This document shows, one piece after another, positions 6,060 to 63,746 of a stretch of DNA of 64,000 nt. Each line of letters starts with the position of its first letter. Position 1 is the stretch's first letter. The stretch is from Acidobacteriota bacterium. Its GTDB lineage: Bacteria > Acidobacteriota > CAIWXX01. The DNA lies in the NCBI GenBank assembly GCA_040755995.1, contig JBFMAF010000003.1, positions 32,001-96,000 of the forward strand. The letters run 5' to 3'. A program made the translations under genes and the position numbers. The notes below the pieces were generated by a model, which had not been told where the DNA came from, searched no databases, and was given only the letters and a program-made list of their open reading frames with translations.

Positions 6060-7165
<1,106 letters not shown>

Positions 7166-7354
7166 GGCCATGCCCTCCGTAGTTCGTATTCTCGACCCAT
7201 TATGCTTCAGGACTCCTCGCCGAGACAAGTCGCCTTTGGTCCGTTTCGCTCGACAGATGCCAGCGTTCGGACGAAGCAGCGGGGAACTCGACGCAGTTCC
7301 CCTGCTTTGATGTGCTACAAATGATCTCGCCTGGTAGTGGCGGAGAGGAAGTCC

Positions 7355-7660
7355 ATGAACAGCCAGTATGTCGAGGAGATCGAGGGGGTCTTTCGGGTGA
7401 CCGGCAGCCGCGTCTCGCTGGATTCCATTGTCCATGCTTTCTGGGGCGGACAGACAGCTGAGACCATCGGGCAATCATTTCCTGTGTTGACGCTCGAACA
7501 GGTATACGGAGCCCTTACCTTCTATCTGGCCAACAGCTCGGAGGTGGATGCCCGTCTGGCGAAAGCGGAATCCGAGTTTGAGGCTCTGAGGAGGGCATCC
7601 AGGGAGAAGGACCCGCTCTTTTATCAGAAACTGGCGGACGCGCGCCGCCGGGCCGCGTGA
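7355..7660 (+). CDS. DUF433-family antitoxin
   Basis: FRVTGSRVSLDSIV ... AETIGQSFPVLTLEQVYGALTFY pattern; directly upstream of a PIN-like gene. Confidence 0.8.
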   Translation: MNSQYVEEIEGVFRVTGSRVSLDSIVHAFWGGQTAETIGQSFPVLTLEQVYGALTFYLANSSEVDARLAKAESEFEALRRASREKDPLFYQKLADARRRAA

Positions 7661-27018: not shown

Positions 27019-28188
27019 CTAAATCAGGACAATCCCGTTTGAGGGCAGGTACTCTCTGAGGACAAACTCTCTGTACCAGCTCGCGGCCTGGTAGAACCTG
27101 TAGATGGGATGCTGGACGGCGTCCCATGGCTTCGGAAGCGAGCAGAGCTGATCGCGGCTGTCTGACCACGCCTTCAGGTTGTACGGGGGTATCGTCTGCT
27201 CTTGGAAGGTACCCGACTGCTGCGCAGAAAAGGCCGTCTGCCACGCGCGTGAGCGCGTTTCGATGTCGCCTGTCGTGCCTAGAATCTGCGCAACTTGCGC
27301 CGCCTTGAACAGGTGGGAGACTTGCGAGTCTGCAATCCGAGGCGCCGCGTTCGCGAGTTGTACGAACCATACGTAGAGGGCCTCGCATGCCTCCAGGTAG
27401 TCGACAGGGTTGCTGCGTGCCTGTGTCTGGGCACGGGTCCTGTCGGAGTCGTGTGCCTCGTACTGGAAACTCCATTGGAGAAAAGGCACGTCGGGGAGAG
27501 TGGCCACGGCGCTATGGCCCAGGGCGCCCGAAATGTCCTCTGCGAAGAAGGACGCGATCGGGAGAAGCCGGCGCTTCGCCCAGTGCCTGACGCGGTCCCA
27601 GAAACCCTCGGGCGACCTGTTCTCTGTTCTCAGTCTGGGGTAGGCGGGGGCGCGGCGCCTGATGCTCCGTTCCAGTTCGCTCATCACGGCGGCTGGCGCC
27701 TGGCCGGAGGGAGGCCGGCCAAGCGTGATTGACCCGCCCTTCACACGGTTCAGGCTCGTACTGATCCCGGCGAATCCGTGATGGGCGAACGTATCAGCGT
27801 ACATGTGGGCAGCCACCCCCGCGAGCTGGAGAAAGCAGGGCCTCTCGATCTCCTTCAGGCAGGCGGCCAGGACTCCCTGGGCGTTCTTGCTGTTCTTCGT
27901 GCAAACCAGCATGTCACTCAGGTGCGGGCCTTCTCCGCCCGGCATGAAGTGGAAGGGAACCCAGACCTGGAGCTGATCATCCGGATCCGTGTTCGCGTCG
28001 AGATCGAGCAGACTGTGGGCCGTCGTCTCGACTTTGAACCGAGCGCAGTCGTTGCGTATCAGGACGCCTTCCGCCGTCGAGTCGTCCACATACTGCGATA
28101 CCCCGGCGATTGTCTCGGCGGCATCCTGCCTCAGCCCGGCCATCCGAGCCAGACAATAGACGCCATAGTAGTGCATGTCGATCTGCAT
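27019..28188 (-). CDS. DUF6765-family protein (Zn phospholipase C/P1-nuclease-like)
   Basis: MQIDMHYYGVYCLARMAG...SQYVDD, VWVPFHFMPG, GVAAHMYADTFAHHGFAG, LGH...PD motifs. Confidence 0.75.
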   Translation of the reverse strand: MQIDMHYYGVYCLARMAGLRQDAAETIAGVSQYVDDSTAEGVLIRNDCARFKVETTAHSLLDLDANTDPDDQLQVWVPFHFMPGGEGPHLSDMLVCTKNSKNAQGVLAACLKEIERPCFLQLAGVAAHMYADTFAHHGFAGISTSLNRVKGGSITLGRPPSGQAPAAVMSELERSIRRRAPAYPRLRTENRSPEGFWDRVRHWAKRRLLPIASFFAEDISGALGHSAVATLPDVPFLQWSFQYEAHDSDRTRAQTQARSNPVDYLEACEALYVWFVQLANAAPRIADSQVSHLFKAAQVAQILGTTGDIETRSRAWQTAFSAQQSGTFQEQTIPPYNLKAWSDSRDQLCSLPKPWDAVQHPIYRFYQAASWYREFVLREYLPSNGIVLI

Positions 28189-28359
28189 GATTCACCTCGC
28201 TAGCCAGGATGGGAGCATTACACCATCCCCTGCTACATCTATAAGTGTCTTAAGCAGGACAGAATCTTGGCCACCGCCGGGAGGAAGACCCTGGGCTTGA
28301 TGGCCTCCCGGTTGCGGCTGGTGCCGCGCAAGCGCCTGTCCCGCTTCGAGGCGGCCCCG

Positions 28360-32935: not shown

Positions 32936-35134
32936 ATGCCAATGCGATCAAGCCTCGTTATAGCTCACATCTCTGACCTGCACTATCCTCTCTGGGAGGA
33001 TGACGCCTGGCAGGATCTGAGAACCTACATCTCCTCGAAGAAGCCCGATTTGATAGTCGCCACTGGAGACCTAACAGACCATCCTTGGTCTCGGAAAGGA
33101 ACAAGAGACAAGTTGCTTGAGCTTGTGCGAGACTGTCAGCGGGTCAGAAACAATTCCGAAAGCCCCGCAGGAAAGGTGGTGCTGAGCGTAGTGCCCGGAA
33201 ATCATGACTACCGAATCTCTGGCATTCTCCCTTCGGCGTTTGGCAGAAGGCTCTTTGCCCGGGTTTTCAGCGAGCACTTCGGACGGTTCCTGGAACTGGA
33301 GGCGGGGGATTGCTTGGTCTATCTGTTCAGCTTCGACTCGAACCACTTGATGGCCGGCTGGGCGAAAGGCAGAGTCAGCGCCCGTCAGCTTAAGGGATTC
33401 GCTCGCACGATCAACAACCTGCGAACTGACGGGGAGAAATACAAGCGCGCGTATAAGATCGCGGTGCTACATCACCATCCGTTGCCGATTCTCCATGCGG
33501 GGCTGCTGGAGTCGTTCCTCGTTCTCATCAATGCGGGAGAGTTCCTTCGTCATATGGCTCAAGCTGGGGTGGATCTCATCTTGCACGGACACAGGCACCG
33601 CCGAGTTGTGTCGTTTCTGAATCTCGGATCAACGTCGGGTCTGAGGAGAAAGCTCTCTGTTGTAGCCAGTGGGACCACACTGATGAGGGGTGGCGGCGGG
33701 AGGGGCAATTCATGTAACGTGATCACTGTTCATGGTGACCATCTGGCTGTAGTCACCGAGGCTCTGAGGACGGGTGGAGCGGCTTTTGCTGAAGCCGATC
33801 CCGTCTTCTTGCCGCCATGGGAGGAGTACGTTGTGGATCGGTACCAGGACCTAGTTCGGTCACGGGGATACCGAATCGAAGCCATTAGCAAGTCCATCGT
33901 TATCGATGAGCAGGGATACGCTCGGGTAGAACTGAAGCTGGATCGAGTGGTGGTGGCGGACAGGATGGTGTTCAAGGGCGTCGAGCCATTGGAAGTGGAG
34001 GTAGAAAGGGGACGCATAGAGCATCTGGAGCTTACCGGATCACCGCACGCACCGAGCTTCCCGGTGCGAGGCGGCTCTCGGCATAAGACTATCGAGATAC
34101 CCCCGTCGGAACTCCTCAGAGGCAGTCCGCTGTCCTTGGCCGTTTCCTATTGGCATTTCAATTCTTGGGCTCTGGACACTGAACAGTTCAGAAGAAAATA
34201 CCCCCAGCGAAAGGAAGCTCGCGAGGAGTCCTGCTTTGAATGCATCCGACCGGTAAGAGTCTTCCATCAGATCATTGGCTTACCCAGAAACTGCAAGCTT
34301 GGCGAGCCTCCCGAGCTCATTGTCTACCGCATGATCAACGATGGAAAGAAGCCATTTCCGGAAGAGGACAGGCATCTCACAGAACACTTTTCATCATCAC
34401 TTCAGTTCTTTGAACGCGAGAATACCATCTCCTTGACGCTGAACCATCCCTTGCCGGGGTTCCGCTATGCCGTACGGTGGTGGCTGCCCAAGCCGTATGC
34501 GAGACAAGTCAGCCACGTGTACTCGGCCGAACAAGAACGCATGATTCAAGAGCTTCGAAAGGAAGCCAGCCACAGAAGACTCAACGAGTTGATGCGCAGA
34601 ATCGAGCGGGCAGCCAAAGATCAGTTGGGTATAGGGGATGCGGAGGAGATTGATGTCTCGTTTTCGATACCGGTCTACGAACCGGACAAGCCGGCTGCAA
34701 TGAAGTTCATTGCTTCAAATGACGCTAATCTTGCCATTTTGAGTTTGGAACTGGAGGTTGGCGACGGCGCGGCGGGGGCGGCTTATGAGGAGAATCGCAT
34801 CGTGTCCTTTGTTCGAAGAACCATCGACCCGCGTGATCCTAAGAACAACATCTACGTCGAGTTCGGGACGTATCAGCACCAGGCGCTATACGCAGTGCCA
34901 GTCCGGCATCCACTCGATAGAGAGCTGGTCATAGGAGTTCTGTCAGTGGGTTCGCAGCAGGTCAACTCCAAGTTGATTCCTGATAGCAAGGAGAAGCGTG
35001 AAATGATCGGAAACACAATCCAGGGGATCGCCTGTGAGCTCATGATCGGCGCGCTTTGCGCGCTTTATCCTGGCATTCTCACCGTGCACCCTCCCACCGG
35101 GGCGATCCCGGCATCGGCATCCCAGCCAGCTTGA
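32936..35134 (+). CDS. Calcineurin-like metallophosphoesterase fused to an unknown beta-rich domain and a C-terminal GAF-like domain
   Basis: HISDLH, TGDLT, PGNHD, LHHHP and LHGHRH motifs all intact; C-terminal GDGAAGAAY...YAVPV...IGVLSV resembles GAF. Confidence 0.78.
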   Translation: MPMRSSLVIAHISDLHYPLWEDDAWQDLRTYISSKKPDLIVATGDLTDHPWSRKGTRDKLLELVRDCQRVRNNSESPAGKVVLSVVPGNHDYRISGILPSAFGRRLFARVFSEHFGRFLELEAGDCLVYLFSFDSNHLMAGWAKGRVSARQLKGFARTINNLRTDGEKYKRAYKIAVLHHHPLPILHAGLLESFLVLINAGEFLRHMAQAGVDLILHGHRHRRVVSFLNLGSTSGLRRKLSVVASGTTLMRGGGGRGNSCNVITVHGDHLAVVTEALRTGGAAFAEADPVFLPPWEEYVVDRYQDLVRSRGYRIEAISKSIVIDEQGYARVELKLDRVVVADRMVFKGVEPLEVEVERGRIEHLELTGSPHAPSFPVRGGSRHKTIEIPPSELLRGSPLSLAVSYWHFNSWALDTEQFRRKYPQRKEAREESCFECIRPVRVFHQIIGLPRNCKLGEPPELIVYRMINDGKKPFPEEDRHLTEHFSSSLQFFERENTISLTLNHPLPGFRYAVRWWLPKPYARQVSHVYSAEQERMIQELRKEASHRRLNELMRRIERAAKDQLGIGDAEEIDVSFSIPVYEPDKPAAMKFIASNDANLAILSLELEVGDGAAGAAYEENRIVSFVRRTIDPRDPKNNIYVEFGTYQHQALYAVPVRHPLDRELVIGVLSVGSQQVNSKLIPDSKEKREMIGNTIQGIACELMIGALCALYPGILTVHPPTGAIPASASQPA

Positions 35135-54319: not shown

Positions 54320-55654
54320 TTATAGTGCGATGTGGCTGCAACAATCCTGGAGAGATGAAAAAAATACCTGTGCGGCAGATGCTGGGCCTGGGACTGAGCC
54401 CTGGCAGGCTTGCATCTTATTGATAATTCGTCTCGCTGGCTGCGCCAACTGCCGGAGCAGGGCCGTGTTGTGGCACCGGATGCTCTGTGTGTCGGTGGCT
54501 ACTACGCAGGCGTTGCAATTGTCGCATCGGGCGCGGTCGGTCCGGCCGCTGCGGAACTTGTTCGGCAGGTCGGGCTCCAGGATCAGCGGCCTGGCCATAG
54601 AGCAGAAGTCGGTGTGCCCCTGGTCGATGGCGGCCTCCATGAACGCGCGCTCCCGCATCCCCCCGACCGTCACTACCGGCAGCTTGATGCTTCGTTTCAC
54701 TCTTGCGGCCGTCGCCAGGTTGTAGCCTTCGCGGAACCTGGGCTGGAAGAGGCTGGCTGCCGGCATCACTAGGCGCTTCGTGACGAACCGGTACGGTGGC
54801 GACATGTGGCAGAAGGGGCGAAGGTATCGAAGCATCGCGTTTGCCGGGAATGCTCCGCGGGTCATCACGAACCCAGCCTCGTTCGTTCCGCAGCTCAGCT
54901 CGATCGCATCGCAACAGCCGGTCTGTTCGACTCGCCGCGCGGTCTCGACGCACTCATCCGGCGTGATGCCGCCGGAAACGCGCTCCTCTGTGTTCAGCTT
55001 GATCAGCACCGGATAGCCTGGCCCGACTGCATCCCGCACGGCCTTCAGGACATCGCCGACGATTCGGAAGCGGTTGCTCAAGTCTCCGCCCCAGCGATCC
55101 TTGCGCCGGTTCGACCGTCTGGCCAGGAAGGACGACAACAGATACCCGTGGGCACCGTGGACCTGCACGCCGTCGTAGCCGGCATCCTTCGCCCTTCGCG
55201 CCGCGTCGCCGAATCCCCGGACTACCTCGGCGATGTCCGCTTCGGTCATCTCCTCAGGCTTCTCGCCGTAGAACCCGCACGGGATCGCCGAAGGAGCCTT
55301 CAGCGGCTGCCGGGTCTCCGTTGACCAGGTCTGCCGGCCGCAGTGGGCGATCTGCAGCACGATCCGCCCACCGATGGCGTGAAGACGTTCGACCATCTCC
55401 CGGTGAGCAGGCACCAGGTCGTCTGAGTCGATCATGGTCATGCGGTATAGAGCGCTCCGGCCGGCTTGCAGCACTCTGGCGTAGCCGGTGATCACCAAGC
55501 CGATCCCGCCTTCGACGAAGCCCTTGTAGAACCGGAACTGCTCTTCGGTGGGCCGGCCACGCGCGTCGGCCAGGCCCTCGTGCGAGGCTGCCCGGATCAT
55601 CCGGTTGGGCAGCTCATGCCTCCCAATCGCTTTGGGCGAAAACAGGATGGACAT
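54320..55654 (-). CDS. NADH:flavin oxidoreductase (Old Yellow Enzyme-like ene-reductase)
   Basis: LPNRMIRAASHEG, LQIAHCGRQ, VHGAHGYLLSSF, D.WGG...NR, VGGMR, MARPLI.EP; C-terminal CDNCNAC...C. Confidence 0.9.
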   Translation of the reverse strand: MSILFSPKAIGRHELPNRMIRAASHEGLADARGRPTEEQFRFYKGFVEGGIGLVITGYARVLQAGRSALYRMTMIDSDDLVPAHREMVERLHAIGGRIVLQIAHCGRQTWSTETRQPLKAPSAIPCGFYGEKPEEMTEADIAEVVRGFGDAARRAKDAGYDGVQVHGAHGYLLSSFLARRSNRRKDRWGGDLSNRFRIVGDVLKAVRDAVGPGYPVLIKLNTEERVSGGITPDECVETARRVEQTGCCDAIELSCGTNEAGFVMTRGAFPANAMLRYLRPFCHMSPPYRFVTKRLVMPAASLFQPRFREGYNLATAARVKRSIKLPVVTVGGMRERAFMEAAIDQGHTDFCSMARPLILEPDLPNKFRSGRTDRARCDNCNACVVATDTQSIRCHNTALLRQLAQPARRIINKMQACQGSVPGPASAAQVFFSSLQDCCSHIAL

Positions 55655-55674
55655 GGCTCGCTGTCCTCGGTTTC

Positions 55675-56262
55675 CTACTTCTTGGACCGCGCCGCTTTGA
55701 CGAAACGACGATCCCGGGCGCGGAGCCACAGGTAGCAGAGGACTAGCGAGCCCCAGAAATACACGCTCACTATCAGCCAGCCCGTGAAGAAGGGGTGTGA
55801 CCAGAAGGAGTAGAACTGCCCGGCCTCGTACTTGTCCATGGTGCTGGCGATGTTGAACGTGATCTTGCGTGTCGCCAGAACTATGACTCCGATCAGGACG
55901 GCCATGGATATGTACCCGATGCGAACCCAGAGGTCGCGGCCCTGTCTGAGCCAGCGCCTGCCGATCTCGAAACCGATGTAGGCCGGCCCCGCTGTCAGCA
56001 GAAATACCGCGAACGACACCGCAGCTCTCAGCGGGCTGTCGTGCAGGTTGTCCTGCCAGCGCCATAGGAAATTCACTTCCCAGGCGGGCCACCCCATGAA
56101 GAAGTAGAACGGAATTGGAGTAATGAAGAACACGGCAAACAAGAGCACCGTCGTCCGCATGAAGTAGTGGCGGTTCTGGTTGTCGCTCTTGAGCATGTTC
56201 TTGCCGGCTTCCGCAAGCGCTAGCCCGGAAAGCAGGGCGACCGGAACATCAATGGCCAACAT
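55675..56262 (-). CDS. Five-TM membrane protein (paralog A)
   Basis: AAGGAGGTG RBS; AIDVP, GWPAWE, GFEIGRRWL. Confidence 0.75.
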   Translation of the reverse strand: MLAIDVPVALLSGLALAEAGKNMLKSDNQNRHYFMRTTVLLFAVFFITPIPFYFFMGWPAWEVNFLWRWQDNLHDSPLRAAVSFAVFLLTAGPAYIGFEIGRRWLRQGRDLWVRIGYISMAVLIGVIVLATRKITFNIASTMDKYEAGQFYSFWSHPFFTGWLIVSVYFWGSLVLCYLWLRARDRRFVKAARSKK

Positions 56263-56322
56263 GCTGTCACCTCCTTTGAGTAGTCTCGCCTGCTGCCCAT
56301 GGCAGCCCGGCTGCGCTTCGCA

Positions 56323-56940
56323 TCATTTCCCTGCGGCCTCTGCGCTGTCTCTCCGGATGCGCCACACCGCAACAGCCAGCCCTGCCACGAAATAGCACAT
56401 CACACCCACCCAGGCGGCCGAAAACCCGTACGCATTGCTCCACACCGACGCCATCTCATCGCGGCTCTGGCCATTCAGGTTGTGGTACTGGTCGTAGGTG
56501 CCTACCAGCAGGAACGAGGGATAGTTGCACAGCACGACGATTCCTACGGCGACGAGGACTCCGATGTACGTCCATCGCAGGAGCCTCTCTTTGCCCGCCA
56601 TGAGCCATCGGTAGCCCAGAACGTGACCAAGGTAGCCGGCGAGGACTATGGCCATGACGAAGCCGGCAGGGAGAAGCGGGTTCAACCACCCCGTGTGCAT
56701 CACCTCCTCGAATCGCCTGCTCCAGTAGATCTGCTCCCACCCCGGCCAACCCGCCAAAAGGTAGATTCCTGCCGGCGCAATCACGAAGCCTGCAAAGAAG
56801 ACGGCGCGATAGAGGTAGCGATAGTAGATCGCCGGTTTCCGGCGTTCTTCTGTCGATGAATCGGCCTTCAGGGTCTTTCGACCCAGGTCGATGAAGAGCA
56901 TGCTGGCCACGAATGCGGCCGGGATATCGATCTGAACCAT
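56323..56940 (-). CDS. Five-TM membrane protein (paralog B)
   Basis: GAGGAGG RBS; QIDIP, GWPGWE, GHVLGYRWL. Confidence 0.75.
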   Translation of the reverse strand: MVQIDIPAAFVASMLFIDLGRKTLKADSSTEERRKPAIYYRYLYRAVFFAGFVIAPAGIYLLAGWPGWEQIYWSRRFEEVMHTGWLNPLLPAGFVMAIVLAGYLGHVLGYRWLMAGKERLLRWTYIGVLVAVGIVVLCNYPSFLLVGTYDQYHNLNGQSRDEMASVWSNAYGFSAAWVGVMCYFVAGLAVAVWRIRRDSAEAAGK

Positions 56941-56959
56941 ATGCGTCCTCCTCTTGCGC

Positions 56960-57970
56960 CTACGTGCTGAGCCTCACCGCACAGCCCCCAGGGCCAAACT
57001 CCATATCAGTACCCGCACCCGAGCGCGGCACCCCAGCGGTGATTCGCCGCAACATCTCCTCGATCGATCGCTCCTCTGCAGCGCTCAAGAAACGTCGCGG
57101 GAGCGCCGGCGTAAGCCTCCCGAGGGCGCGGTGCATCGCCAGCCCAAGCGGGTTGTACGGCAGCAGCTCCACCTGGCTCACACGCAGCTCCCTCAGGATC
57201 GCGACCAGCCCGGACAGATTCTCCTCGGTCGCCGTGATCCCTGGCACCACGGGAATGCGGACCGCCGTTTGGACCGGCTCGCGCAAGAGTCGTTCCAGAT
57301 TCATCAGAATACGGCGATTGCCGCGCCCGGTGAGCTGGCGGTGAGCTCGCTCGTCGGCCAGCTTCAGGTCGAAATAGACGAGATCGACATGTGGCAGGAT
57401 CTGCTGATGGAACGAAGCATAGTCGAACCAGCCCGCAGTCTGAATCGCCACGTGGACGCCCCGAGCCTTCAGCGGCTCGAGCAGCATCTCCAGGTACTCG
57501 GGGTAGAGCGCGCACTCGCCGCCCGAGAGCGTCACGCCTCCACCCGAGTGCCTGTAGTACGGCTCGTCCCGCAAGAGCAGATCCACGAGCGCTCCCGGCG
57601 AGTAGTACCGGCCCACCGTCCGCAACGCACCGCCCGTGCAGGCGTCGACACAAGAGCCGCAGCGTGAACAGCGGTCGCGGTCGATGCGGCCGTCCAGCTG
57701 GACGCTCGCCGCGCCCGCCGGGCATGCTTTCACGCATTCGCCGCAGCCGACGCACTTCTGTACGAAGAACGCGATCTCCAGCCGCGCGTCCTGTGTCTCG
57801 GGGTTCTGGCAGAAAACGCAGCGCAGGGCGCAGCCCTTGAAGAAGACGACGCTCCGGATGCCGGGGCCGTCTTCGAGACTGTGGCGTTTGACGTCCACCA
57901 CCAGAGGGTAGTCGCTCGCGACCCGGCCGGTCGCCACCTCATCCAACACGGTTATTGTCGTCTCCATCAC
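56960..57970 (-). CDS. Glycyl-radical enzyme activating enzyme with ferredoxin-like insert
   Basis: DGPGIRSVVFFKGCALRCVFCQNPE; CVGCGEC...CP and CSRCGSC...C; GGGVTLSGGE; LLPYN.LG. Confidence 0.93.
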   Translation of the reverse strand: MMETTITVLDEVATGRVASDYPLVVDVKRHSLEDGPGIRSVVFFKGCALRCVFCQNPETQDARLEIAFFVQKCVGCGECVKACPAGAASVQLDGRIDRDRCSRCGSCVDACTGGALRTVGRYYSPGALVDLLLRDEPYYRHSGGGVTLSGGECALYPEYLEMLLEPLKARGVHVAIQTAGWFDYASFHQQILPHVDLVYFDLKLADERAHRQLTGRGNRRILMNLERLLREPVQTAVRIPVVPGITATEENLSGLVAILRELRVSQVELLPYNPLGLAMHRALGRLTPALPRRFLSAAEERSIEEMLRRITAGVPRSGAGTDMEFGPGGCAVRLST

Positions 57971-58455
57971 ACCAATCCCAGCTCTTTTCCAAGGTCGCGC
58001 GCCATGAAGGCGAACTTGTAGACGTAATTGAGGTTGCCGTCGATCTCGACTTCGTTGCGCAGCAGCGAACTCAGGATGTCCTGGTCGCGTGAGAACAGGA
58101 AGGACCTGAGCGCCGGTACGTTCTTGAAGCTGACGCGCACGTCCCAGTCCTCGATTCCATTGGGATGGCGCATGATTCTCTCATTGTCGAACACGACGCC
58201 GCTTCTGACGCGATCGTCTACCGTTCTGAACAGGTACCGCCCGCGGAAACCTTTGATGTTCCTGCGATAGGGCTTCCACAGGCGCAAGAACAGCTGCATG
58301 CCAACCAACAGCAGGTCCACGAAAGCGTCGGTCGCCGCCCCGGAAAGTTGGTCCGAGAGCTGCCTGCAGCCCTGCCTGGCGATACGGTGTCCCAGCTGCT
58401 CGGGCCAGAGATACCGAAATGGACGCCATGACGCAACTCTTGGCCAGAAAGACAT
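57967..58455 (-). CDS. SCP2 (sterol carrier)-like protein
   Basis: YLFRT...VVF...DVRVSFKN...DILSSLLRNEVEIDGNLNYVYKF fits the SCP2 fold pattern; sits between the GRE and its activase. Confidence 0.62.
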   Translation of the reverse strand: MSFWPRVASWRPFRYLWPEQLGHRIARQGCRQLSDQLSGAATDAFVDLLLVGMQLFLRLWKPYRRNIKGFRGRYLFRTVDDRVRSGVVFDNERIMRHPNGIEDWDVRVSFKNVPALRSFLFSRDQDILSSLLRNEVEIDGNLNYVYKFAFMARDLGKELGLV

Positions 58456-58457
58456 GT

Positions 58458-61013
58458 TCAGTCCCTCGCTTGTTGAATTGGGAATGGCTTGTAGAACACC
58501 ATCGAGCCCGTGGACAGCAGGTACTCGGTGCGGTCGATGATCTCTTTCTGCATCTGTGGATTCAGGTCCTTGAAGTAGGCCGTGTAGCCCGAGACTCGCA
58601 CCAGCAGCTCTGGGTAATTCTCCGGATGCGCAACTGCATCCACGAATGTGTCGTGCGTCGTCACGTTGAACTGGATCTCCATGCCGCCCTCGGTTCGGCC
58701 GTCGCGATCGTCGAAATAGCCCTCCACCGAGGCCACGAAGTTGTCGAGCATCCGCTCGGGATCCCCGCTCTCCGGCGTGTACTTGAGATTCAAGGCCACG
58801 CCGTTTGAAAGGCATTGGGCAGGCTGGCGGGCGACCGAGTTCAACGCCTTGGTCAGACAGGGGGTGACTCCGGATACAGGCGTGATGCCGCTGGTGAAGT
58901 TCTCGTGGGCCTTGCGGCCGTTCGGAGTGGCTCCCATGAGGCGGCCGAAGCCGGCGTGGTTGGTCATGGTCCAGTAGCCCACTCGATAGCGCCCTCCACG
59001 GTAGTTCACCTTCTCGCCAAAGGCCTGGTCGAGCATGTCGACGATCCACGTGACAGTGGCATCGGCGTCGGCATCGTCGTTGCCGTACTTGGGTGTCTTC
59101 TCGGGGTCGATCAGGCGCTTGTGCAACGCTTCGTGCCCTTCGAAGTCCTTCTGAAGCGCATCCAGGAGAGTGGCGAAGCTCACCCTCTTGTCTTGAAAGA
59201 CGACTCGACGTAGGGCGCTGAGCGAGTCGGCAACGTCCGCGAGGCCGATGATTGTGGCGGCCGAGGCGTTGATGACCGCGCCGCCCTGGATCAGATCACG
59301 ACCGCTGTCCATGGGTCCTTCGAAGAAGGCAGAGAGAATCGGAGTCGGATAGAAATCCTGGTGGACTCGCCCGAGCAGCTCGTTCAGGCGCACCGCCTGC
59401 TCGATCAGCCAGCGGGTCTGCTTGCGGAACGCGGTTCGAAAGTCGGCAAACGAGGCGAACCGCGCGGGATCGCCGGTCTCGAAGCTGATGAGCCGGTCCG
59501 GCCCCGTGTGCCGGTGCCGGCCGTTGAACAGCGTGAGCTCCAGAGCCGACGTCAGGTTGAGCAGGATCGACGCGCTGCTCCCGTAGGACCTCCCGTTGCT
59601 GCCCGGCTCCACACACCCGATCACTCCGTAGTCACGCGCCTGTTCCGGAGTGTCGTGCTTGGAGGTCAGCGCCTTGATGACGGCGCGATCGTTGTGCAGA
59701 GCAGGAGTGGCGCCGGTCGTGATATTGACCTCGCACAATCTGCGGAGGTATCCCTTCGAGTTGACTCCCGGGAAGTACCGGGCATTGAGGTTCGGATCTC
59801 TCAGGCGCATCAGCTCGGTGGCTCTGAGCATCACGTAGGTCAAGTCGTTTACCGCGTCGTTGCCGTCTCGGTCAACACCGCCGATAGTGATGGCCTGGTT
59901 GGAGCCCGTGCCGCCGAACAGCTGCTCGCCGGTCTCGGGGATCATGGGGACGTGGTCGCCGATCTTGAGCCACAGGCAGCAGATCAGGTCGACGGCGTCC
60001 TGCACGGTGATGACGCCGGTTTCGACGTCGTGGCGATAGAGGGGCCAGAGCACCCGGTCCAGCCTGCCGAGGCTCATACCGATGTTCGGGTTTTCGAGAT
60101 GGATCGCGGTCCAGCAGATCCAGACCGTCGTGAGCCCCTCGCGGAAGCTCTGCGCGGGGTGCTCGGGCACGCGCCTGTGGACTTGGGCCAGATCCAGAAG
60201 CTCGCGCTTGCGGACGGGGTCCGGCTCGGTCCGGGCCATGGCTTCTGCCTGATCCGCCAGCCGCCGCGAGTAGCTGACCACACCTTCGAGCACCTCGGCG
60301 ACGGCCTGGTAGAACTCCTTCTGAGACGAATCGCTCGTGGCTGCCGCCCGGGCTGTCGCTTCTTCGATCATCGCCCGCAAGCCGACGCCGATGGCCTTGC
60401 TGAAGTCCGGGATGGTGTGAGAGATGCATTCGGGCTTGCTGACCAGGAAGAAGACCAGCCACTGGAGGAGCTTGAACTCGAGCAAATTGTGTTCGGATGC
60501 GCGGCAGGCCGGTTTCCCGTTCAGCGCCCGCTTCCGTGCCAACTCCAGAATCGTGTTCTCGATCCAATGCGGGAAGATCTCCTCGTTGAGCGCCTTCACT
60601 TCGGCTTCAGTGATCTGAAACGGGTTGCTCGCACGGCTCTGCATCGTCCAGAGCTCCGGCCAGAGACTCAGCGCGAGGAACTCCGGGTACAGGGGGACTC
60701 CCTTGAACTTGCTGGTGGTGGAGCCGGCGAAGAGCGAGTCCTCGACGAACTCGAACCGCTTCATCCCCTTTTCGTAGCCGCACGTGTGGCTGACGACGGG
60801 CGTGCGGTTTTCCAGCACGTACCGGTACATCCTGGCCTTTTCCAAGATGGAGATCCGAGCTCGGCCGAAGAGCCCGTGTTCGAGGCTGTACCGGGTGATC
60901 AAGCGAGGCCGTTCGACGCAGATCTCGGGCATTGCCCGGAAGTAGATCTGCTTGAGTTGGGTCACACGGGGAGTCAGCCAGCACTCCCGTAGCGAGATGT
61001 CCTGAAGTGCCAT
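58458..61013 (-). CDS. Glycyl radical enzyme (eliminase-type CxE loop), substrate unknown
   Basis: ICVERP, SLGRLD, Cys loop GVIGCVEPG, GATPNGR, QFNV, Gly loop LLVRVSGYTAYF; RBS GAGGTG before ATG 61013. Confidence 0.95.
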   Translation of the reverse strand: MALQDISLRECWLTPRVTQLKQIYFRAMPEICVERPRLITRYSLEHGLFGRARISILEKARMYRYVLENRTPVVSHTCGYEKGMKRFEFVEDSLFAGSTTSKFKGVPLYPEFLALSLWPELWTMQSRASNPFQITEAEVKALNEEIFPHWIENTILELARKRALNGKPACRASEHNLLEFKLLQWLVFFLVSKPECISHTIPDFSKAIGVGLRAMIEEATARAAATSDSSQKEFYQAVAEVLEGVVSYSRRLADQAEAMARTEPDPVRKRELLDLAQVHRRVPEHPAQSFREGLTTVWICWTAIHLENPNIGMSLGRLDRVLWPLYRHDVETGVITVQDAVDLICCLWLKIGDHVPMIPETGEQLFGGTGSNQAITIGGVDRDGNDAVNDLTYVMLRATELMRLRDPNLNARYFPGVNSKGYLRRLCEVNITTGATPALHNDRAVIKALTSKHDTPEQARDYGVIGCVEPGSNGRSYGSSASILLNLTSALELTLFNGRHRHTGPDRLISFETGDPARFASFADFRTAFRKQTRWLIEQAVRLNELLGRVHQDFYPTPILSAFFEGPMDSGRDLIQGGAVINASAATIIGLADVADSLSALRRVVFQDKRVSFATLLDALQKDFEGHEALHKRLIDPEKTPKYGNDDADADATVTWIVDMLDQAFGEKVNYRGGRYRVGYWTMTNHAGFGRLMGATPNGRKAHENFTSGITPVSGVTPCLTKALNSVARQPAQCLSNGVALNLKYTPESGDPERMLDNFVASVEGYFDDRDGRTEGGMEIQFNVTTHDTFVDAVAHPENYPELLVRVSGYTAYFKDLNPQMQKEIIDRTEYLLSTGSMVFYKPFPIQQARD

Positions 61014-61105
61014 GGTTGTCGTCACCTCAAAATGGGTTGCCCTGGGTAACGGGACCTTGCTTCTCCGTCAAGCAAATCCCTGCGCCATTGTCCTTCCGCA
61101 GGTCT

Positions 61106-61426
61106 CTATGGGCATTTCCGCGGGGGCTTGCAGACGGAGCAAGGCTTGTAGCCGTGGCTCTTGGCCCAGTCGAGCGTGACCCGTTTCTTCGAGCGGTTCA
61201 AGTACCGGCAATTGGCCCGGTGATACTTGGTGCCGGTCTTGGTGATGTAGACGTAGCAGGTCGCGAGGTCATTCTCGGACATGGTGGGTTCCGGGGCGCT
61301 CGGCGCAACGAGAGCCAGTTCCTGGCTTGGCAGAGTCGGGGTCTGCTGGCATGAGGCTGCGGAGAAGACGACGGCGAAAACGAATGCAACGCATGCGAGC
61401 AATAGGACGGTGCGGTGCCTGTGCAT
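61106..61426 (-). CDS. Small putative lipoprotein with an Ada-like Zn-binding domain
   Basis: Hydrophobic signal ending AASC; VYITKTGTKYH...C..L...GYKPCSVCKPP; AAGGAGG RBS. Confidence 0.75.
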   Translation of the reverse strand: MHRHRTVLLLACVAFVFAVVFSAASCQQTPTLPSQELALVAPSAPEPTMSENDLATCYVYITKTGTKYHRANCRYLNRSKKRVTLDWAKSHGYKPCSVCKPPRKCP

Positions 61427-61728
61427 GGTCAACCTCCTTGATAGTGAGCACGCCTGGGGCTTGCGAGGGAACGTCGGCGAGATCCCGGCAGCGCCGGGTG
61501 CGTCATCGATTCCCACACATCCCTCTCTGCAGTATTAGTGGCACCTGGAAGTGAGAATCTTGGGTCATCAGAAATAGAGCTCCCCGCCCGCCAATCTCGC
61601 CCCTCGTTCCGGCAGCCTTCCTGGCTTCAAGTGCTACTTCCACTCATCAAGCATCCCCCCTCACGCGTGGCTCAAAGACCGTCGACCTCGCCCGGCCAGC
61701 GGGTGTAGGCTGAGTCATTCGGTGGTCT

Positions 61729-62835
61729 TCACCACATCATCACCACCGTCTGGCCGGCGCGTTCGCTGTAATACAAACGAATACGGAGCACGTATTTGAG
61801 ATCTTTGGTCAGTTTCAGCCGGATGTGGGCGTTGTAGTCCTCGCCACTATCATCATCGGCAGTCAGGTAGCGCAGCTCCCCGGCGGCGTCCTCGAAGAGG
61901 ACCATGACGGTGTCGGACTCACCGAAGGTCCTGATTTCGTAGTAGCGAGTCGCATCGGGCTTGATGAGGAAGTTGCGTTGCTCACCCGGCGCGATCGCGA
62001 GCTCCACCGACTTCAGTGGCAGTAGCTCCGTGTAGTCGGCTGCCGTCAGCGGAGGGTAGAACGTTCTGACCCATTGCTTGTCGCGATCGGAAAGGCCGCC
62101 TGCCGGCGCCAGACCATCGCGGTACTGCGCCGGTTCCTTGATGAGGCCGGCCTCGAAGGGGTAGTGCATGATGGAATTCGGGTCCCAACTCGACCCCTGC
62201 ACAGCGTCAGGGCTGATCTTGCGGATGATGTTGTAGTATGTCTTGTCCCGATCCCACTCATTCGGCGGCTGGGCGAGCGCTGCATATACGGCTTCCTCGT
62301 CCCAGACGATTCCGGCGTTCGGATTCTGATGCTCGTGGGGGAAACCGAGCGTGTGGCCGATCTCGTGGACGGCCGTGTCGATCTCAGTCGGATCTCGGGT
62401 GAGATCCCAGCCGAAGTTCATGGTCCGCTCATCACGCCCTTGACCGAGGATGTCTCTACCGACGTACGACCATGCTCCATCGCCCCGCATGAACCCAATC
62501 CTGATTTCCGCGTCATCGCGCGAAGCCACTTCCTTGAGATCGAGCCCGATACCCATCTGCTTCCAGACTGCGAATGCCTGACGTACTACGTCCTTCTCCT
62601 CCTGAGTGGTGGTCCACGGGCGCCACTCGCTCGTGCCGTTGGACAAGAGAACGGACTGGCCGTCGGTTGGCTTGTCGAAGAAGTAGTAGTGCAGCACGGT
62701 GCCGTTCACCCACTTCTTGGCCGTCATGAGTATTAGCCGGGCTCTCACAAGTCCGACATCAGGTCCGAAGACCCGTTCCGAAACCTGCGGCAACGAACAG
62801 TAGGAATGCTTGTGTCTCGCTGCTGAATCGACCAT
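61729..62835 (-). CDS. M12/astacin-like zinc metallopeptidase with a C-terminal PPC-like beta domain
   Basis: WSYVG, HEIGHTLGFPHEH, Met-turn SIMHY, DDDSG; no signal peptide. Confidence 0.9.
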   Translation of the reverse strand: MVDSAARHKHSYCSLPQVSERVFGPDVGLVRARLILMTAKKWVNGTVLHYYFFDKPTDGQSVLLSNGTSEWRPWTTTQEEKDVVRQAFAVWKQMGIGLDLKEVASRDDAEIRIGFMRGDGAWSYVGRDILGQGRDERTMNFGWDLTRDPTEIDTAVHEIGHTLGFPHEHQNPNAGIVWDEEAVYAALAQPPNEWDRDKTYYNIIRKISPDAVQGSSWDPNSIMHYPFEAGLIKEPAQYRDGLAPAGGLSDRDKQWVRTFYPPLTAADYTELLPLKSVELAIAPGEQRNFLIKPDATRYYEIRTFGESDTVMVLFEDAAGELRYLTADDDSGEDYNAHIRLKLTKDLKYVLRIRLYYSERAGQTVVMMW

Positions 62836-62930
62836 CTGTCTCGACCTCCTAAATGGCGAAATCGTCTAACCCTTGTTCATGCGGCATTGATACGACGCCC
62901 TACGGGCAAGCCTCAGAGCGCGCCCACTGC

Positions 62931-63746
62931 CTACCCCAGTACCTTCCATTTCTTCATGGACTTCGAGCCATACAGATTCGGCGTCTGCGGATATTGCTGC
63001 GAGGGCAGCGCATCGCGTATGGCCCTGTACCAATCCGCGTATGTGGCGTTCGCCGGCAACGGCGAAAGGGCGCGCAGGGCCACGAACGTGAAGGCACCGT
63101 TGGGACGTCCCTGGAAATAGGCGTCGTAGCTGTACTCAGTGTCCTGGCATCCCGCCATGAGGAGCGCGGCGTAGCGCCCGGGCGGGCTGGATTTGCGCAT
63201 TGCACGCCGCACACCGAGCTTCGCAGCGTCGCGCTTCGCCAGAAACACAGACGGAGGCAGGAAGCGGACTTTCCGCTGGGGCGCGTGCTTTGCCTTCGTG
63301 GTTGGGGGAGTTGTGATCGGAGCGAATCTCGCCACGGTGCCGGAGTGGCAGGAATCAGAGATCATGAGGAGGTTCACGCCCTGCTGCCTTGCGCTATAGA
63401 TCTCGAACAGCTCGTCGTCGGTGATTGGACCCTTGGCGCCGATGTCGTAAGGGCAGAGGCACTCATCCGTGCCGTCTGGCTCGTCACCGTCCTCATCGGG
63501 CACGAACGACCCATGGCCGGAGTACTGAATCACGACGAGGTCGCCCGCGCTTGCACCGGTGACCGCCGCAAGCATGGCCGACCGCATCGCCTTTCCCGTG
63601 GCCTGCTGATCGAACAGCTGCTTCACGGCGAATCCTCGGTTCGAGAGTGCCTTGGCCCAGTCGTTCGCGTCGTTGACGCATCCGGCAAGGTCACTGTTGG
63701 TTCCAGGGTAGTTGTTGATCCCCATGCACAATGCATACTTAGCCAT
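62931..63746 (-). CDS. Metacaspase (peptidase C14)
   Basis: ALCMGINNY...LAGCVNDA, YSGHGS, SDSCHSG, GAFT, QTPNL. Confidence 0.93.
   Translation of the reverse strand: MAKYALCMGINNYPGTNSDLAGCVNDANDWAKALSNRGFAVKQLFDQQATGKAMRSAMLAAVTGASAGDLVVIQYSGHGSFVPDEDGDEPDGTDECLCPYDIGAKGPITDDELFEIYSARQQGVNLLMISDSCHSGTVARFAPITTPPTTKAKHAPQRKVRFLPPSVFLAKRDAAKLGVRRAMRKSSPPGRYAALLMAGCQDTEYSYDAYFQGRPNGAFTFVALRALSPLPANATYADWYRAIRDALPSQQYPQTPNLYGSKSMKKWKVLG

Follow-up and report, generated by a model that had tools for sequence, protein, structure and literature searches.

Gene content of the operon

We analysed a 64,000-nucleotide stretch from the genome of an Acidobacteriota bacterium (contig JBFMAF010000003.1, positions 32,001 to 96,000 of the forward strand; hereafter the window), in which six minus-strand open reading frames (ORFs) at 54320-61013 surround a gene for a glycyl radical enzyme (GRE). 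All six are co-directional, intact and tightly packed, with intergenic distances of 2, -4, 19, 60 and 20 bp along the operon, which confirms the layout given in the first-pass annotation of this DNA (gaps of 60 bp or less). The GRE (58458..61013, 851 aa) carries the motifs GCVEP at 466 and RVSGY at 806 and is assigned here, from Pfam/NCBIfam profiles, a residue map and trees, to an uncharacterised branch linked to SCP2-like proteins. Its ATG start is preceded by a ribosome-site-like GAGGTG, and an alternative GTG at 61025 would give 855 aa. The next gene (57967..58455) encodes a 162-aa protein of predicted SCP2 fold with about 40 extra basic, amphipathic N-terminal residues, the predicted partner of the GRE. 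It is followed by a radical SAM GRE activase (56960..57970) with an inserted ferredoxin-like domain, a CxxxCxxC motif and two CxxCxxCxxxC motifs, which scores 275 bits with TIGR02494, above the cut-off of 174.

The remaining three genes encode two membrane proteins and a reductase. M1 (56323..56940, 205 aa) has five predicted transmembrane segments and neither a Pfam name nor a clear structural match, and M2 (55675..56262, 195 aa, five hydrophobic segments) is its paralogue, 28-29 % identical to it. The last gene (54320..55654) encodes a 444-aa OYE-type flavoprotein with an HGAHGY motif and a C-terminal CxxCxxC-x10-C motif. Pfam matches in the operon comprise PFL-like (1.7e-152), Gly_radical, Radical_SAM with Fer4, and Oxidored_FMN (9.9e-57); for the 162-aa protein, M1 and M2 no Pfam or NCBIfam family was found above cut-off.

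As stated in the first-pass annotation, the operon holds no microcompartment, aldehyde/alcohol dehydrogenase or P5C reductase genes. Microcompartment, aldehyde dehydrogenase and P5C reductase genes were also not recognised among the recurring neighbours of related GREs (Pfam on 23, 105 and 65 selected neighbours of 1297 ORFs), and 2 of 93 locus groups have a zinc alcohol dehydrogenase near the GRE. The promoter scan of the region found none against 1.3 expected, and the terminator scan (8 predicted against 5.0 expected) was uninformative. Directly upstream of the GRE lies a small lipoprotein-like ORF (61106-61516, minus strand) whose C-terminal part has a Cys-rich stretch resembling the metal-binding region of Ada (Pfam E 0.05, below cut-off). 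Its homologue precedes a second copy of the operon in this genome (see below), and it is not a general neighbour.

A branch of glycyl radical enzymes linked to SCP2 proteins

We collected loci of related GREs from GTDB genomes (48 of 51, after exclusion of three distant GREs from Planctomycetota), from metagenomes (the best 80 of 533 matches) and from a 401-genome sample of the phylum of locus L008 (17 loci). Grouping at 90 % GRE identity gave 103 groups, of which 42 have at least 3 kb on both sides and are called well-flanked here. Neighbours were counted within 5 kb of the core, and grouping at 80 % gives similar shares. A wrong-frame ORF (L189) was dropped from the locus counts and from the IQ-TREE analysis, and its row was ignored in the FastTree tree. 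All 42 well-flanked groups have the SCP2 gene within 5 kb of the GRE, and 39 of the 42 have the activase. The GRE and the SCP2 protein are constant companions, encoded side by side or fused into one protein.

The first-pass annotation described the 162-aa protein as SCP2-like, and the predicted structure bears this out. Homology searches found 83 homologues, 69 of which were aligned; Pfam SCP2 matches 19 of these 69 weakly (best E 1.5e-4) and does not match the window's own protein. The AlphaFold model (pLDDT 85) has UbiJ-SCP2 as its top Foldseek match (E 2.8e-5), and ranks 1-10 of VIA-align are all SCP2-type domains (top Z 9.8, root-mean-square deviation (rmsd) 2.9, 108 aligned residues). The protein is predicted to adopt the SCP2 alpha/beta fold. 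UbiJ is a stand-alone SCP2 protein that serves enzymes with a greasy substrate. Identity to UbiJ-type proteins is 15-22 %, and our protein differs from them in its extra N-terminal helices and in having a radical enzyme as partner. Its residues 1-38 show a median net charge of +4 and an amphipathic moment of 0.78 versus 0.44-0.62 elsewhere in the protein, a faint hint that the N-terminus may contact the membrane. A search of PDB sequences with the SCP2 profile gave only weak FtsH matches (E 0.027 or higher), which were set aside.

Small gene products accompany the catalytic subunit also in HPAD, BSS and MASS, the only GREs for which a 2026 review names small subunits (PMC13450708, section 15). 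Those subunits are Fe-S or Fe proteins, whereas the partner here has an SCP2 fold and lacks a conserved cysteine motif. An SCP2-type partner is absent from the review, which does not contain the words sterol, SCP, membrane or fusion (PMC13450708). We found no description of the SCP2-linked branch in the literature; most subscription papers and all supplements were outside the search, and the cluster could sit unnamed in network figures or tables.

Fusions of the two proteins occur in both orders. The SCP2 domain is C-terminal at loci L015 and L017 (GREs 62 % identical) and in P0084. In the genome studied here, contig C44 (54282-57281, plus strand; L055:6283-9282) encodes a GRE of 999 aa that bears an SCP2-like domain at its N-terminus; an activase gene comes next. 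This domain is homologous to the 162-aa protein (hhalign probability 92.9), so that the genome holds both the fused and the split form. The family of N-terminal fusions comprises at least 120 clusters with 67-100 % identity, and the named ones among the matches listed come from Desulfobacterales, Desulfatibacillum, Syntrophales and Spirochaetota. Split, C-fused and N-fused GREs fall on one side of a single branch in both trees (IQ-TREE 100/100, 12 of 24 rows; FastTree 100, 43 of 57 rows), in which the root is not fixed and which cover neither IslA, HpsG, HplG, AAD, PAD and BSS nor the PDB entry 2F3O.

Outside this branch, a 1096-aa ORF on contig C15 (31012-34302, minus strand) joins a GRE activase, on the N-terminal side, to a GRE that shares 34 % identity with the window GRE. 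It clusters with a GRE from a Moraxella plasmid in a position sister to the SCP2-linked branch. Plasmids of two aerobic genera, Moraxella osloensis (L063) and Acinetobacter towneri (H3), carry an uncharacterised GRE with its activase, between Tn3 transposases in the case of L063. This GRE is the best plasmid match to the window GRE (32 %).

Judged by profiles and alignments, the window enzyme belongs to the GRE superfamily but to no characterised family. It matches PF02901 with 510 bits and PF01228 with 73 bits, has a cognate activase, and its Gly809 and Cys467 are invariant. Against the HpsG, CutC and HypD models of NCBIfam it scores 411-427 bits where the cut-offs are 1000-1100, with 418 bits for CutC (TIGR04394, cut-off 1050) and 411 for HypD (NF043068, 1100). 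The sulfonate-lyase models NF048011 and NF048009 give 427 and 381 bits (cut-off 1000). Scores are lower with IAD (264, cut-off 1100), HPAD (190, cut-off 1150) and pyruvate formate-lyase (TIGR01255, 131, cut-off 994). It is 30 % identical to glycerol dehydratase (GD), 31 % to propanediol dehydratase (PD), 29 % to CutC and HypD, 30 % to PflD, 28 % to YbiW and 21 % to PflB. These values, together with replaced substrate residues and a separate branch in the trees, agree with the first-pass annotation, which had called the operon uncharacterised.

The active site was compared through a sequence alignment rather than a model of the GRE, using the 103 split-branch groups, some of which are fragments that miss columns. 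Our GD reference from Clostridium butyricum is annotated only as glycyl radical protein, and we call it GD because its C433, E435 and H164 fit the numbering of the review. Among rows with a residue at the position, His199 is conserved in 92 of 92, Cys467 in 99 of 99, Glu469 in 99 of 99 and Gly809 in 98 of 98, and they align with H164, C433, E435 and G763 of GD, where E435 is currently regarded as the base and H164 as the acid (PMC13450708, section 26). The Cys-Val-Glu loop (C467-V-E469) is present in all 99 rows. The first-pass annotation took such a CxE loop as a mark of eliminases; the loop is indeed there, although this reading of it was overstated, since isomerases and the decarboxylase HPAD also carry CxE (PMC13450708). 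Pocket positions of GD are extensively replaced (H281 by V/I, S282 by G, R325 by I/V/M, Y336 by T/S, Y339 by N, H446 by S/T, D447 by A/G, F450 by L, Y640 by W and S642 by M). In this alignment the GRE keeps the Gly/Cys/Glu/His set of eliminases, while residues that bind the substrate in GD become smaller or apolar.

The branch also has residues of its own (Lys193, His354, Trp681, Met683 and His686). Lys193, His354, Trp681 and His686 are nearly invariant across the split and fused branches, and most references differ there; Lys193 is found in 92 of 92 split rows and 20 of 21 N-fusion rows. A second cysteine at residue 196, three before His199, is present in 86 of 92 split-branch rows and is seen neither in the fused branch nor in the references.

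Several known enzymes were considered as identities for the GRE and rejected. Pyruvate formate-lyase has a Cys-Cys pair where a single Cys is found here. GD (PDB 1R8W/1R9D) and PD (5I2A/5I2G) share the Gly loop, the single-Cys CVE loop, the His at H164 and a ferredoxin-type activase, and of H164, H281, S282, D447, Y339/F and Y640 only H164 is retained; R325 and S642 are replaced as well, propanediol dehydrogenase genes are missing as are microcompartment genes, and an SCP2 partner is present. CutC has Asp at the position of H164, which is His in our enzyme. The positions of HypD D278, S334, D339, F340, Y450 and T645 hold I/V, F, S, N, L and M. For the sulfonate lyases IslA, IseG, HpsG and HpfG the scores are below cut-off and the IslA sequence was not in the alignment; through the GD correspondence, our enzyme presumably has His where they have the Gln of their Arg-Gln-Arg site. 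HPAD and IAD were rejected on scores and because the small partner has no Cys motif, unlike the Fe-S gamma subunit of HPAD (residues of AAD and PAD were left out).

Among GREs of solved structure, Archaeoglobus fulgidus PFL2 (2F3O) gives the best single-stretch match (371.6 bits), and it has the ISH motif at His199 and the NQA motif at Asn372 in common with our enzyme. It keeps Asp at GD D447 and Tyr at Y640, where our branch has Ala/Gly and Trp. PFL2 is itself uncharacterised, and both GD and MASS are debated as its function (PMC13450708, section 33). PflD and YbiW, isomerases that cleave the ether C-O bond in 1,5-anhydrosugar phosphates, share the CxE loop and the His, and PflD also has His at 686; here the Arg at GD R325 is lost and there are no phosphotransferase-system or aldolase neighbours.

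It is very improbable, in our judgement, that the GRE is a decarboxylase or another C-C-cleaving enzyme for a fatty or hydroxy acid held by Lys193. The invariance of this lysine and the occurrence of the Cys-x-Glu loop in HPAD and IAD would be compatible with such a role. It is opposed by the profile scores, which are far higher for the dehydratase/lyase models than for HPAD and IAD, and by the His at the H164 position, which is common to GD, PD, HypD, PflD and YbiW.

Core genes, optional genes and their surroundings

The share of groups with the membrane gene (11 of 42 well-flanked) and the reductase gene (7 of 42; both genes in 6 of 42) is much smaller than that of the SCP2 gene and the activase. 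We therefore regard GRE, SCP2 protein and activase as the core, and the twin membrane genes as a minority form. The exact order of six genes recurs only in L045, L103 and the second copy in this genome, and the notion of a conserved six-gene set could not be upheld.

The membrane proteins and the reductase are an optional addition, yet their occurrence from genome to genome follows that of the GRE module. Of the 401 sampled genomes, 15 contain the membrane family and 38 the SCP2 module, and 11 of the 15 have both (Fisher p ~1e-9, which overstates the significance since related genomes are not independent). A close orthologue of the reductase was found in five of the 401, and all five have the split SCP2 gene and, immediately upstream of the reductase, a membrane gene. 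In three of the five this pair lies on another contig than the GRE; four of the five share the gene order and look like close kin. Membrane genes were not detected in 33 of 46 GRE-carrying genomes, many of which are incomplete. The link between accessory genes and GRE suggested by the first-pass annotation thus holds in that the close reductase orthologues in this sample occur only in genomes with the module, and fails in that the genes are not a fixed set.

The membrane family counts 224 representatives at 50 % identity. No Pfam match over cut-off was obtained in 68 homologues and no Foldseek match at E<=0.001; the best VIA-align match has Z 7.2 and rmsd 5.5, and the best Atlas score (0.80) is to a cluster without name. 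The reductase has the FMN barrel PF00724 and the HGAHGY (His-x-x-His-x-Tyr) site, as expected of OYE and FadH/BaiCD-like enzymes. Its closest solved relative is the 2,4-dienoyl-CoA reductase FadH (PDB 1PS9), and it scores below all named equivalog cut-offs. Its CxxCxxC-x10-C motif likely binds an Fe-S cluster.

The second copy of the operon (contig C56, 11187-20700, minus strand) is about 80 % identical in DNA, and its GRE 84 % identical to that of the window. It has a gene for a 745-aa calcineurin-like phosphoesterase before the reductase; M2 is interrupted by an insertion of about 215 bp, and a partial extra reductase copy lies at 6642-7540 of the contig. A search of 40 relatives of this genome found no SCP2-like gene, which makes the distribution of the cassette patchy, and the spread over many phyla is patchy too. 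The module is a common one among uncultured anaerobes, with 38 of 401 sampled genomes of one phylum and at least 533 metagenome matches.

Missed in the first-pass annotation were two kinds of neighbours that occur as often as the membrane and reductase genes, or more often: phosphoesterase-like genes and a duplicated GXWXG-like protein. A calcineurin-like phosphoesterase is found in 22 of 42 well-flanked groups, DUF6765 in 4 of 42 and either of them in 25 of 42, whereas the whole 7.7-Mb genome has 5 calcineurin-like matches. The phosphoesterases form at least six subfamilies, and their genes take up a position immediately before the GRE or behind the activase. A profile of four subfamilies had LpxH lipid pyrophosphatases as its only solved matches, and these were weak (E 5e-5 and 3e-4). 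DUF6765 lies beside a more distant split sub-branch (L252, L255, L261, L262, L264 and L267), and its conserved His/Asp motifs are suggestive of a zinc phosphoesterase. In hhalign comparison with the phospholipase C family PF00882 the H-x3-D-x3-H motif was aligned, with a probability of only 1.5 and 2.5. The window itself has a DUF6765-like open frame at ~27022-28191 (minus strand, profile match) and, at 32936-35134 (plus strand), a 732-aa ORF whose DLH motif resembles that of metallophosphoesterases (motif only), both 20-27 kb from the operon in the same region of lower third-position GC content (GC3). The GXWXG-like neighbour, present in 12 of 42 well-flanked groups, is a protein of about 600 aa with two GXWXG/DUF4334-like domain copies, sometimes split into two genes (L038:5497-7299, L033:9986-11854, L006:14903-17050 and others). 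GXWXG/DUF4334 clusters are the nearest ones with a name in the Atlas (0.79), which is no more than a lead, and a profile search for the protein did not find it in this genome.

Other recurring neighbours are kinase or cyclase STAND-TPR proteins (9 of 93 groups), DUF362, CHAT, nSTAND, and papain, astacin and thermolysin proteases, which indicates that the GRE regions are islands. In the window, genes for an astacin-like metallopeptidase and a caspase-domain protein (61729-63746, minus strand) lie upstream of the operon and are typical of islands that host this GRE branch. Given such surroundings, the cassette could make a reactive lipid-derived aldehyde as a signal or defence in conflict-type islands, with the membrane protein and the reductase protecting the producer, and would then not be a feeding pathway. 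Recurrence of STAND-TPR, CHAT, nSTAND and protease genes is in line with this, as are the patchy spread, the absence from 40 relatives, the two copies here and the lack of a recurring regulator. The pairing of sensor and effector is however not fixed and the neighbours vary (PADLOC was not searched), and glycyl radicals need anoxia and are slow to be activated. We consider this role quite improbable; its possible chemistry would be compatible with the lipid-head elimination proposed below.

The surroundings of the N-fusion branch are different. None of the accessory genes was detected in its 19 well-flanked groups, using profiles and bit cut-offs built from split-branch neighbours. Among its loci, several of them close kin, TetR is the regulator found at most, an SDR occurs at 5 of 20 and an aldehyde:ferredoxin oxidoreductase at two, while an acyl-CoA dehydrogenase with an enoyl-CoA hydratase, a fatty-acid-CoA ligase and an OYE occur at one each. 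By its gene content this branch looks catabolic. The C-terminal half of the SDR has the 3-ketodihydrosphingosine reductase TSC10 as its best single-stretch match (44.3 bits versus 42.6 for FabG), and close homologues of the SDR are present in 7 of 9 N-fusion genomes, the source of the query included. The GRE could then be a C-N lyase for sphingoid bases or long-chain amino alcohols, acting after a sphingomyelinase-like phosphoesterase, with the reductase handling the enal. Yet the margin of TSC10 over FabG is small, TSC10 is not among the top 60 matches of the full-length SDR, and CutC carries Asp at the position of His199. With the SDR in 0 of 37 split-branch genomes, this one included, it was rejected as a split-branch partner, and we find the sphingoid explanation improbable. 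A hopanoid side chain was also rejected as endogenous substrate, since a squalene-hopene cyclase was not found in this genome (99.8 % complete); scavenged hopanoids are not covered by this search. Across genomes the cyclase is over cut-off in 4 of 37 with the module and 3 of 20 without it, so hopanoid synthesis does not track the module.

A possible role in oxygen-free lipid processing

Like the first-pass annotation, we infer a lipid substrate and an elimination followed by a reduction. In the reading we favour, and whose chances we regard as evenly balanced, the GRE would be an eliminase that acts without oxygen on the polar, hydroxyl-carrying head of a lipid, the tail of which would be held by the SCP2 protein as the predicted partner of the GRE. 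The activase would install the glycyl radical. The phosphate head group could first be removed by a calcineurin-like phosphoesterase, whose gene accompanies the GRE at about half of the loci and also in the C56 copy. The membrane protein(s) together with the basic N-terminal helix of the SCP2 protein would draw the lipid out of the bilayer. Cys467 would then abstract a hydrogen from the carbinol carbon, Glu469 would take the hydroxyl proton and His199 would protonate the adjacent leaving group (water or an alkoxide), with an aldehyde or ketone as the product. Finally, the reductase may saturate the alpha,beta-unsaturated carbonyl (enal) formed from the elimination product. If a single substrate is to be guessed, it would be a dephosphorylated glycerol lipid (mono-alkyl or mono-acyl glycerol), converted to a fatty alcohol or acid and a three-carbon carbonyl, e.g. 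acrolein, a guess that is probably off the mark. Precedents for parts of this chemistry are the radical cleavage of an ether C-O bond beside a carbinol by PflD and YbiW and the release of hydroxyacetone from a three-carbon diol by HpsG, both described in the review (PMC13450708).

Several observations speak against the lipid-head reading. SCP2 folds are found also in alkylsulfatases and Eis/GNAT acetyltransferases, so the fold alone is no proof of a lipid cargo. Lys193 aligns near the anion-binding arginines of HypD and IslA (in HypD the anion is bound by Arg156/Lys326; PMC7077986), so that an anionic substrate fits better than a neutral glycerol lipid, which leaves the lysine unexplained. No phosphoesterase lies within 5 kb of the window's own GRE, the phosphoesterase profiles were derived from the very loci counted, and such genes could belong to the general cargo of islands in which protease, CHAT, STAND and kinase genes are found as well. 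In the split branch there is no recurring regulator or aldehyde-oxidising gene, and a catabolic role is therefore not evident there. Finally, 13 of the 42 well-flanked groups have no accessory gene at all. This last count, and the SCP2-like domains of Eis/GNAT proteins, would fit if the SCP2 protein were a structural or gating small subunit that covers a hydrophobic patch or channel, like the beta and gamma subunits of BSS, and the substrate were small and soluble; known small subunits do cover hydrophobic patches and gate a channel (PMC13450708, sections 15 and 16). The loss of several aromatic and polar pocket residues, the fatty-acid catabolic neighbours of the sister branch and the absence of any recurring transporter or sugar/amino-acid gene in the split branch argue the other way, and we hold such a purely structural role to be rather unlikely.

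Extended to the whole branch, the lipid-head reading would describe a wide group of GREs, built on a lipid-carrier subunit, that cleave membrane-lipid backbones without oxygen, glycerol ether bonds included. The split form would be a lipid-processing cassette (phosphoesterase, membrane presenter, GRE-SCP2 and enal reductase), and the N-fusion its catabolic counterpart feeding beta-oxidation. We consider this extension doubtful. For the split form, the present analysis adds the division into core and optional genes, the link between membrane protein and reductase at the genome level, the association with phosphoesterases, and negative tests for hopanoid and sphingoid markers.

The characterised GRE eliminases and isomerases covered in the 2026 review all act on small polar molecules (PMC13450708). 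A GRE with a lipid-carrier partner would represent a new type of subunit and probably a new class of substrates. The module offers a concrete, expressible candidate for oxygen-free attack on lipid head groups or ether bonds, for which the neighbouring genes narrow the range of substrates. If the proposed function is true, this would be the first GRE with a lipid head group as its target, and it would be a candidate for the turnover of ether lipids under anaerobic conditions in sediments and groundwater.

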